A DNA stretch of 32,000 nucleotides from Opitutus sp. GAS368 (GTDB lineage Bacteria > Verrucomicrobiota > Verrucomicrobiia > Opitutales > Opitutaceae): the NCBI RefSeq assembly GCF_900104925.1, contig NZ_LT629735.1, positions 372,291 through 404,290 on the forward strand, given 5' to 3'. Every line of letters begins with the position of its first letter. Position 1 is the first letter of the stretch. Below are positions 16,732 through 17,739 of this stretch, one piece after another. A model generated the notes under the pieces. It saw nothing but the letters and a program-made list of their open reading frames with translations, ran no database searches and was not told the DNA's origin. A program made the translations under genes and the position numbers.

Positions 16732-17739
16732 TCAGGGTGTCGCGCGCTCCAACTTCAGGTTCAGCAGCGGCACAAGCAGCAGCAGCCCGACACACGTGAG
16801 CCCCAGCACGGCGTAGCCCGCGGCATCGTGCACCGTGCCGTTGATGGCCCCGGGGCCGTAGGCGTAGGCCCAGCCGGTGAGGAACAGGCTGCGCGCCAGG
16901 TTCATCAGGAAGGCGAAGATCATCGACGCCACCACCAGCGTGACCTTCTTCCACGGCTGCTCGAAAAACGTCGCGCCGAGGAACGACCCGGCGAAGAGGC
17001 ACGCCGTCAGCGACCGGATGCCCGAGCAGGCGTCGGCCACGCCGACCGGCCCCTTCGGCAGCATCAGCACGTTGCCCTGCTGCTCGAGCGGGAAGCCGAG
17101 CATGTCGAACACGAAGGCCACCACCGTCACCACCTTCCGCAACAGGAAGAGGCTGACCTGCGACTCGACGGCCGAGACCAGCGGCGCTGAGACCAGCCAG
17201 ACCAGCACGGGAAAGATGAACAGCGCCGCCACGCGGTAGCGGCCGTCGGCGAAGAGGGCCATGAAACCATTGCCATTGGAGGGCTCGCGTCCCTGCGAGC
17301 CGGCCCGCAGAGACGCGGGCCCTCCATTCGGCGCATTGAAATAAATCAGCGGCAGCACGATCGCCACCATGCCGAGCGTCAGCGCAAAGGTGCCGGGCTG
17401 CGACGTGCCCGCGCCGGCGCGGTAAAAGGCCCCGAGCAGGAAAAACAACGCCCCCCCGAGCAGCCCGAGGCCCGCCGCCGCGTTGAGCGCCCATTGCACC
17501 CAGCGCGCACTGGCCGGCCCGGACTCCGCCGCGCGCAGGCGCCCGAGCAGCTGCGGCCAGCGGTCATAGACGACATAGGCGGTGAACAGCGGCACGAGCC
17601 AGCCGAACGAATAGTCCTCCTTCCGGCTCCACCAGTGCGACTGGTCCCACGCGACGAAGGCCATGAAGCCCGTCGACAGTCCGAGCGCAGCGAGGAACGG
17701 TGCGGGTGGTTTCGAGAGGGCTTGGGGCTGGTCGGTCAC
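16732..17739 (-). CDS. Exosortase (EpsH/Xrt family) polytopic membrane transpeptidase
   Basis: GVADACSGIRSLTA carries the catalytic Cys motif. The conserved Arg is in MNLARSLF and the His in GTVHDAAGY, and there are multiple TM helices. I prefer the GTG start at 17739 because the ORF-track start at 17826 lies inside the 17811-17891 palindrome. Confidence 0.8.
   Translation of the reverse strand: MTDQPQALSKPPAPFLAALGLSTGFMAFVAWDQSHWWSRKEDYSFGWLVPLFTAYVVYDRWPQLLGRLRAAESGPASARWVQWALNAAAGLGLLGGALFFLLGAFYRAGAGTSQPGTFALTLGMVAIVLPLIYFNAPNGGPASLRAGSQGREPSNGNGFMALFADGRYRVAALFIFPVLVWLVSAPLVSAVESQVSLFLLRKVVTVVAFVFDMLGFPLEQQGNVLMLPKGPVGVADACSGIRSLTACLFAGSFLGATFFEQPWKKVTLVVASMIFAFLMNLARSLFLTGWAYAYGPGAINGTVHDAAGYAVLGLTCVGLLLLVPLLNLKLERATP
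17278..17325. repeat. Family 2 doublet (48 nt) inside the exosortase CDS, in frame
   Basis: ggagggctcgcgtccctgcgagccggcccgcagagacgcgggccctcc is the exact reverse complement of 19528-19575, checked base by base. It encodes GGPASLRAGSQGREPS within ...IYFNAPN[GGPASLRAGSQGREPS]NGNGFMALF... Confidence 0.95.

Follow-up and report, generated by a model that had tools for sequence, protein, structure and literature searches.

Why does the same palindromic sequence lie twice within 2.2 kb of a bacterial chromosome, once between two genes and once in frame within the gene of a membrane enzyme? We addressed this question in a 32,000-nt stretch of DNA from Opitutus sp. GAS368 (contig NZ_LT629735.1, positions 372,291 to 404,290; hereafter the window), in which a 48-nt repeat, here called F1, is part of an exosortase gene (EpsH/Xrt) and recurs in the spacer between phoH and ybeY. 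An earlier note on this DNA had interpreted the exosortase copy as a recent, tolerated, in-frame insertion of a member of a mobile repeat family. Our analysis leads to a different view of its age. We consider it likely that F1 is an element of the type formed by two inverted repetitive extragenic palindromic (REP) sequences, a REP doublet forming a hairpin (REPIN), and that it is an old insertion in a permissive exosortase loop where it is translated as a flexible linker.

Structure of the F1 element

The two copies agree without mismatch over 48 nt (17278-17325 on the plus strand against 19528-19575 on the minus strand), and no such match occurred among 100 dinucleotide-preserving shuffles. 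A repeat finder lengthened the identity to 50 nt, TGGAGGG...CCCTCCA, pairing 17277-17326 with the reverse complement of 19527-19576, a match with a chance expectation of 0.00. The exact identity described earlier was therefore confirmed and slightly extended. The exosortase copy (17277..17326, minus strand; 48 nt, or 50 nt with the flanking T and A) is in frame and encodes GGPASLRAGSQGREPS. The identical dimer in the phoH-ybeY spacer (19527..19576, plus strand) lies 4 nt past the phoH stop codon and 9 nt before the ybeY start and has the same orientation relative to transcription.

F1 in the exosortase gene consists of two inverted 24-nt REP-like units which are joined tail to tail with a 0-nt spacer and have their heads outward. 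Each unit starts with a GGAG head followed by the hairpin GGCNCGC-GTCYCT-GCGNGCC, in which the stem measures 7 bp and the loop 6 nt. When unit 1 (17302..17325, minus strand) is written in mRNA sense, it reads GGAG + GGCCCGC-GTCTCT-GCGGGCC and belongs to a C-G stem subtype; the inverted unit 2 (17278..17301, plus strand) reads GGAG + GGCTCGC-GTCCCT-GCGAGCC and belongs to a T-A subtype. The element is thus a heterodimer in stem and loop. In a set of 33 units, taken from the window and from related genomes, the stem was 94% paired and pair 8-21 covaried (CG/UA/GC). Covariation at this one pair supports the small hairpin as the conserved structure of F1 modestly but consistently, and it agrees with the F1 copy of the related locus L046, in which the changes are located in the small loops. 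The whole element in the sense of the exosortase mRNA folds into a single long hairpin of -51 kcal/mol (z = -6.8), and as RNA or single-stranded DNA the range is -45 to -51 kcal/mol (z about -6.7). Minimum-energy folding favours this long hairpin over two small ones, whereas the pattern of variation (pair 8-21, L046 loops) fits two REP hairpins better. Both identical window copies are oriented such that two G-U wobbles and one mismatch result, not the reverse.

F1 has REPIN-type architecture and is one of several REP families in Opitutaceae genomes. Its 24-nt unit is a short G+C-rich stem-loop within the 20-40 nt of REP units, its copies are mostly extragenic and close to the 3' ends of genes, and its two inverted units are copied together as a tail-to-tail heterodimer. 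The window contains 8 F1 half-units in 4 elements where 0.01 would be expected, and three of these four elements are intergenic, 1-4 nt past stop codons. Besides the copy in the phoH-ybeY spacer these are two variants, one at 21036..21101 (plus strand; two inverted units with an 18-nt spacer) which starts 2 nt past the stop of a DUF502 gene, and one at 30885..30947 (no strand assigned; a G-C stem unit and a diverged unit with a 15-nt spacer) which abuts the stop of 30950-31999 (minus strand). Terminal inverted repeats together with a target-site duplication, the hallmarks of insertion sequences, were not found, as no consistent direct repeat was present at 22 junction pairs. The base at -1 was T at 20 of the 22 junctions and the base at +1 was A at 18 of them, and both bases extend the palindrome. 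The triplets AAT..AAT around the window copy were considered as a target-site duplication and rejected, since they are not repeated at other junctions. In Rfam the hairpin had no match at the gathering threshold, and below it only generic microRNA-hairpin matches appeared. By inspection, F1 contains no stop codon in any of the six frames.

The insert in the exosortase protein

The exosortase coding sequence (16732..17739, minus strand) has a probable GTG start at 17739, which gives 335 aa, and the frame is open up to 17826. The open reading frame (ORF) matches Pfam PF09721 (E=2.3e-46) and TIGR04178 (58.6 bits vs a cutoff of 23), and no Xrt subfamily model, neither XrtA nor others, reaches its cutoff. 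The NCBI protein 'exosortase [Opitutus sp. GAS368]' (310 aa, ATG 17664) matches the ORF with 100% identity; the start of this NCBI model leaves out the conserved N-terminal hydrophobic segment KPPAPFLAALGLSTGF. Orthologues begin near 'DQ..KPP', and GTG 17739 fits both their lengths and the N-terminal 'KPP..FLAALGL'; it is therefore probably the true start. The start of the longest ORF (17826) falls within an upstream REP element.

On the minus strand of the ORF 16732-17826, F1 is located in frame between ..LIYFNAPN and NGNGFMALFADGRYR.. (NGNGFMALF..), which is in line with the 16 in-frame codons described before. The statement that the insertion adds 16 residues holds for the codons and has to be corrected for the length of the protein. 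The loop comprises 22 aa here. Loops that are apparently unoccupied measure 15-16 aa in nearer orthologues and about 12 aa in distant ones; the net gain is hence only about 6-10 residues. Cys213, Arg217 and His279, numbered as in the 310-aa form, do not vary among 60 orthologues, and the catalytic motifs are intact. An AlphaFold2 model was built on 60 orthologues and reached a mean predicted local distance difference test score (pLDDT) of 80. In this model residues 114-129 (310-aa numbering) form the insert, which follows helix 88-110 and precedes helices 135-147/150-188 and has a pLDDT of 60-74 vs 86-93 in the flanking helices. Such a low-pLDDT stretch between transmembrane helices supports the proposal that the insertion lies in a loop of a polytopic enzyme. 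From the helix count, including the hydrophobic segment upstream of Met55, and the positive-inside rule, the loop is predicted to be cytoplasmic, and Cys213, Arg217 and His279 probably lie on the opposite face. A sequence search of the PDB found no exosortase structure.

Age of the insertion

The identical 48 nt occupy the same exosortase loop in L001 (a metagenome-assembled genome, MAG, of Lacunisphaera sp.), in L037+L032 and in L055, and L045 carries F1 there with one substitution that perfects the stem. At least four other genomes thus have F1 in this loop at 0-1 differences. We compared the exosortase flanks of the carriers over 723-840 aligned coding bases and found an identity of 83-92%, a synonymous divergence (dS) of 0.32-0.62 and a ratio of nonsynonymous to synonymous divergence (dN/dS) of 0.05-0.21. 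Between the window, L001 and L037m, F1 showed 0/48 differences while the flanks were 86-91% identical (dS 0.37-0.58, dN/dS 0.06-0.12). At the rate of the flanks, 0/48 differences would arise by chance with a probability of about 5e-4 to 9e-3 per pair. The exosortase is accordingly functional in the carriers, and F1 has changed far less than the sequence around it. The low dN/dS values indicate strong purifying selection on the gene and, with the gene being intact, agree with the earlier description of the insertion as tolerated.

Inheritance is also indicated by a copy that has decayed. The nearest relative of L001, L044 (dS 0.32), has the same junctions, D and KGF, and its F1 carries 6/48 substitutions which weaken the hairpin to -29.7 kcal/mol. 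Since this decayed copy is found at the junctions of L001 and L045, it points to inheritance with lineage-specific decay. Similar results were obtained for the phoH-ybeY copy, the junctions of which (gatttt on the left and accaa on the right) recur in L037 (48/48) and L041 (46/48), with 4/20 bases on the right side differing between species. Moreover, the seven closest exosortase orthologues (88-90% identity) all contain F1. As both window copies occupy orthologous sites, their identity does not date a recent transposition, and these comparisons indicate that the zero mismatches reflect the conserved master sequence of the family and not youth. The claim of a recent insertion could therefore not be upheld, the same loop being occupied in other species at a flank dS of 0.37-0.6. 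In the MAG JANYAM01 the exosortase gene is split between the end of L037 and the start of L032, and the two contigs overlap by the assembler k-mer at or near the 48-nt repeat.

Turnover of REP families in the exosortase and YbeY loops

Among 120 exosortase orthologues, the stretch from FFNxP to ..ALFADxRFR is hypervariable and contains recurrent peptide motifs. In the DNA these motifs turned out to be palindromes, belonging to other families which are also represented at other sites. In L004 and L041, family F2 is present as a GGTAGGGGC.. dimer; L009 has this dimer as well, there with the stem subtypes exchanged. Family F3 occurs in L005 as a TGGAGG-CCCAGCTCCAGCTGGG dimer, which belongs to the family of the window palindrome at 12865-12916 and shows compensatory stem changes, and family F4 occurs in L018 as a TGTAGGGCGGGATC unit. 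Compound or truncated arrangements were also found: L046 combines F1 with F4, L011 has a truncated F1 with other elements and F4, and in the orthologue P0024 an F1-like remnant lies within F2. F1 and F3 share the TGGAGGG head, the frame and the position. Judged by these alignments, the exosortase loop is a hotspot of turnover which at least four REP families have occupied across orthologues.

In a short and poorly resolved neighbour-joining tree of the exosortase (loop masked, ~280 residues), different loop occupants are interspersed among closest relatives, for example P0002 (F1) beside P0011 (F2). In the close clade no more than 1-3 codons to either side of the element complete the loop, and distant orthologues have a ~12-residue loop, 'APExxSxxAGGF', that contains no palindrome. 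The positions of F2 vary by 0-7 codons, which argues that several of the insertion events were independent.

A comparable site exists 2 kb away in YbeY (19585-20184, plus strand). Between ARYV and EKFSAEL, three families were found across orthologues and none in some. In the window this position is taken by a perfect 54-nt palindrome, a REP dimer of another family (19962-20015; TGTAGGGGCGTCC..GGACGCCCCTACA), which ybeY reads in frame as (V)GASLVDARGRPQGTPLQ. The element of L005 matches it at 53/54 positions, although the two proteins are only 68% identical. Altogether the window YbeY contains three element-derived segments and has 199 aa vs about 154 aa in unoccupied orthologues. The other two are an N-terminal segment of ~30 residues (~19672-19765), resembling the repeat at 289-391 (ATCCCCTCTGGAGAGGGG ... 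CGGGGTGTGTCGG), and a 10-residue segment, 'LGSEALAKEA' (~19880-19915), common only to L045.

Dispersal and possible mobilisation of F1

The exact 48-mer was found on 18 metagenome contigs and, when these are taken together with the genome loci, in about 20 distinct flank contexts. Of the 18 metagenome contigs, the exosortase one alone has it in a frame resembling a coding sequence. In total, 4 F1 elements are present in the 32 kb of GAS368 and 23 in the related loci examined. The dispersed repeat family assumed by the earlier note is thereby supported. All exact copies keep the three asymmetric positions of the heterodimer; as this holds in about 20 independent flank contexts, the dimer is the unit that is copied. 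Several F1 copies adjoin units of other REP families, which demonstrates that REP clusters exist. Two Lacunisphaera MAGs have a single F1 unit in their ybeY genes (L004 3082-3105 and L041 2700-2723; ..KKRLA[EG]TRAL..), inserted in frame and translated there in another frame than the exosortase copy.

F1 may be mobilised by a REP-associated tyrosine transposase (RAYT) of the HUH type acting on single-stranded hairpins. We searched for RAYT genes by tblastn with E. coli RAYT and IS200 TnpA and then with Oter_2468 of Opitutus terrae. The tblastn matches in the DNA scanned were all spurious, for instance L059 2832-2927, which is antisense to a glycosidase-like ORF. Oter_2468 is a RAYT (PF01797), and the profile search gave 3657 hits. 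All seven Opitutaceae RAYT loci examined (L066, L069, L071-L075) are flanked on both sides by REPs, single units or dimers, composed of GTAGGG, a 7-bp stem and a short loop. The sequence of the flanking REP differs by RAYT cluster, which suggests that many RAYT-REP pairs coexist in Opitutaceae. Many of the RAYT contigs are about 1 kb long, because repeats fragment metagenome assemblies.

Origin and maintenance of the exosortase copy

The account that we consider likely runs as follows. A copy of F1 entered the DNA for a hypervariable, disordered exosortase loop in an ancestor of several present-day species. There it survived because its length is a multiple of three, no frame contains a stop and the encoded Gly/Pro/Ser/Arg-rich linker was tolerated. 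In this clade F1 now supplies almost the whole loop, and it persists because it is harmless and because its removal would over-shorten the loop. The constraint on the loop is small, as it must only be open and long enough; with so little constraint, REP families have repeatedly inserted, nested and replaced one another. A newly arriving family inserts beside or within a resident REP and takes its place. The results above show the anatomy of F1, its position in frame, its age, its tolerance by the enzyme, its dispersal and the occupancy of the loop by several families, whereas mobilisation by a RAYT, the cytoplasmic side of the loop and the cause of the nucleotide freeze are inferred. The upkeep of the master sequence may be due to selection on the hairpin or on recognition by the transposase, to re-copying or gene conversion, or to repeated re-insertion.

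Several points weigh against this account. A neutral old passenger would not stay 48/48 at a dS of 0.4-0.6, so that an extra force is needed. The junction codons vary among carriers (N and NGNGF, D and KGF, VPG and NF, D and NGLK), and independent insertions of the master copy into the hotspot are possible in some lineages. The canonical GTAG head is not found, nearly all F1 units starting with GGAG (TGGAGG). The head variants reported for GTAG-type REPs are GYAG, GYRG, GTRG, GTMG and GTGG (PMC3733652). One ybeY element has the head TGTAGG in the window and TGGAGG in L005, and GGAG can thus be regarded as a one-step variant of GTAG. No RAYT gene, with or without flanking F1 units, was detected in the 32-kb window or in the other DNA scanned (556 kb), and of the seven REP-flanked RAYT loci mentioned above, which belong to different sequence clusters, none is flanked by F1. 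Furthermore, the exosortase tree has the low resolution described above, and the sidedness of the loop is based on secondary structure and the positive-inside rule, not on coordinates.

The varied junctions lead to an explanation in which every lineage received insertions of the master copy of its own, repeatedly and at a targeted hotspot, so that the carriers have no ancestral insertion in common and identity means that each copy is young. Identity of 48/48 is what young copies should show, the loop has been struck many times by other families 0-7 codons past FFNxP, and the agreement of F1 and F3 in head, frame and position also fits. Nevertheless, we regard this explanation as unlikely, since the copy of L044 decayed at exactly the junctions of L001 and L045, the phoH-ybeY copy keeps its junctions in three species at 46-48/48 although 4/20 adjacent bases differ, and F1 is present in all of the seven closest orthologues. 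A different source of the nucleotide conservation would be selection on the hairpin as an RNA element of the exosortase mRNA, serving as a translational pause during helix insertion or as an RNase or stability site. Conservation above the protein-level constraint, the great stability of the hairpin (-45 to -51 kcal/mol) and the shared orientation of both window copies relative to transcription would suit such a role. However, intergenic copies in many contexts are equally frozen, which makes the freeze a property of the family; sister lineages swap in unrelated families, decay, or have short loops without a hairpin, and there is no Rfam match. Hence, we judge an RNA function to be quite improbable as the explanation.

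If the exosortase copy had been transposed within the GAS368 lineage, either out of the intergenic copy at a distance of 2.2 kb or along with it, the absence of mismatches over 50 nt between the window copies would follow directly. Both copies were found at orthologous positions elsewhere, with flanking genes at a dS of 0.37-0.6, and about 20 unrelated contexts contain the exact 48-mer; we therefore consider a recent event of this kind very improbable. There is next to no likelihood left for the idea that the 16 residues belong natively to the protein, with the intergenic copy being a piece of the gene or similar to it by coincidence. Close orthologues do contain the segment, but its palindromic, multi-copy and mostly intergenic nature, its absence in distant orthologues and its interchangeability with other palindromes refute this idea.

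An extension of the account of an old, tolerated insertion, which we put forward tentatively and consider rather doubtful, is that the exosortase and YbeY loops serve as REPIN exchange sites. The element peptide would now be a structural linker, families would be swapped in a site-directed manner, and copies would be held identical across species. Swaps might then proceed by RAYT cleavage at the shared head or tail or by hairpin-templated replacement.

Other palindromic elements in the window

Further palindrome families with a TGTAGG head are present at 17811-17891, 21802-21882 and, as described above for ybeY, 19962-20015, and a TGGAGG family at 12865-12916. The 85-nt element has two copies (17811-17891 and 21802-21882) that are 82% identical overall and are each built from an inverted pair of TGTAGGGCGGGATCACCG.ATCCCGCC units around a 25-27-nt spacer. 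The copy at 17811-17891 separates the exosortase gene from a divergently oriented HIT gene, and on either strand it gives rise to spurious 'MIPPY..' ORF starts. The 52-nt palindrome at 12865-12916 (TGGAGGGCTCAGCTCCAGCTGAGCC/GGCCCAGCTGGAGCTGGGTCCTCCA) is located at the start of the annotated ORF of an M16 peptidase (MEGSAPAEPRPSW..) and probably lies 5' of the true start of this gene. Its family also occupies the exosortase loop of several metagenome orthologues in addition to L005 (AAVQPELGPP). Intergenic palindromic or inverted-repeat elements were observed at 5372-5445, 289-391 and 24754-24785, and the pair 289-320/24754-24785 is 94% complementary over 32 nt. In sum, the 32-kb window contains at least five or six families of short repeats.

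Comparison with known systems and implications

Similar elements have been described in the same bacterial family. Di Nocera, De Gregorio & Rocco (2013, BMC Genomics 14:522, PMC3733652) reported about 70 intragenic GTAG REPs in O. terrae PB90-1, many of them dimers that encode 15-25 residues in genes for known proteins, and argued that these residues form linkers or loops. F1 resembles the O. terrae GTAG REPs in having a head tetranucleotide followed by a 6-9-bp stem and in forming head-to-head or tail-to-tail dimers 0-2 bp apart (PMC3733652). Both also share the coexistence of several families, alternative complementary stems, a location of most copies just past genes, and in-frame copies, dozens in O. 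terrae, which encode 7-30 residues rich in Gly/Pro/Ala/Ser/Arg (PMC3733652). In contrast, the GGAG head of F1 is outside the variants listed there, and exosortase, ybeY and the F1 peptide GGPASLRAGSQGREPS are absent from Additional file 3 of PMC3733652. Since in-frame Opitutus REPs were already catalogued in 2013, a single insertion is ordinary for this bacterial family; the GGAG-headed family and the exosortase as a host are new. Unlike the present comparison, the O. terrae study did not include an analysis of orthologues, and the age of inserts, their freeze and multi-family turnover are not described in it, while a one-line remark mentions that two Xanthomonas species carry different REPs at roughly the same place in recB (PMC3733652). 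In the literature searched, we found no account of turnover of several families in one loop, of an element becoming the loop, or of a cross-species freeze vs one decaying lineage.

Like the REPIN-RAYT system, F1 consists of two inverted REPs which are copied together, vertically inherited and long-lived (Bertels & Rainey 2011, PMC3116915; bioRxiv 10.1101/2021.07.10.451892). The REPIN master sequence is constant across strains and copies decay after loss of the RAYT (bioRxiv 10.1101/2021.07.10.451892), a behaviour that the decayed copy of L044 fits. However, REPINs are described as extragenic whereas the exosortase copy of F1 is coding, and the F1 spacer measures 0 nt. In addition, the identity of orthologous F1 copies at a dS of about 0.4-0.6 exceeds what replication and decay alone would predict for REPINs. 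With clusters of REPs known as bacterial interspersed mosaic elements (BIMEs), the compound and nested loop elements (L046 with F1+F4, L011, P0024) have much in common, and REPs are known as targets of insertion (PMC1525189). Unlike BIMEs, the exosortase cluster is within an open reading frame and must stay in frame.

The comparison with Rickettsia palindromic elements (RPE) drawn in the earlier note is apt, as an in-frame palindrome leaves the gene intact. RPE-1 has a length of about 100-150 bp; F1 is much shorter, occurs in a different phylum and has a different type of head, so that the likeness is one of behaviour alone, namely insertion in frame. RPE are likewise palindromes in frame within genes that remain functional, usually at surface or loop positions (PMC3733652).

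REP repeats have practical effects, as they break metagenome assemblies, inflate protein length (YbeY) and mislead start-codon calls. If the exosortase and YbeY loops were indeed exchange sites, selection or active re-copying acting on mobile DNA would be overlaid on the protein code. The exosortase loop offers a natural system in which to study where and how REPINs insert and what keeps their copies matched to the master sequence.

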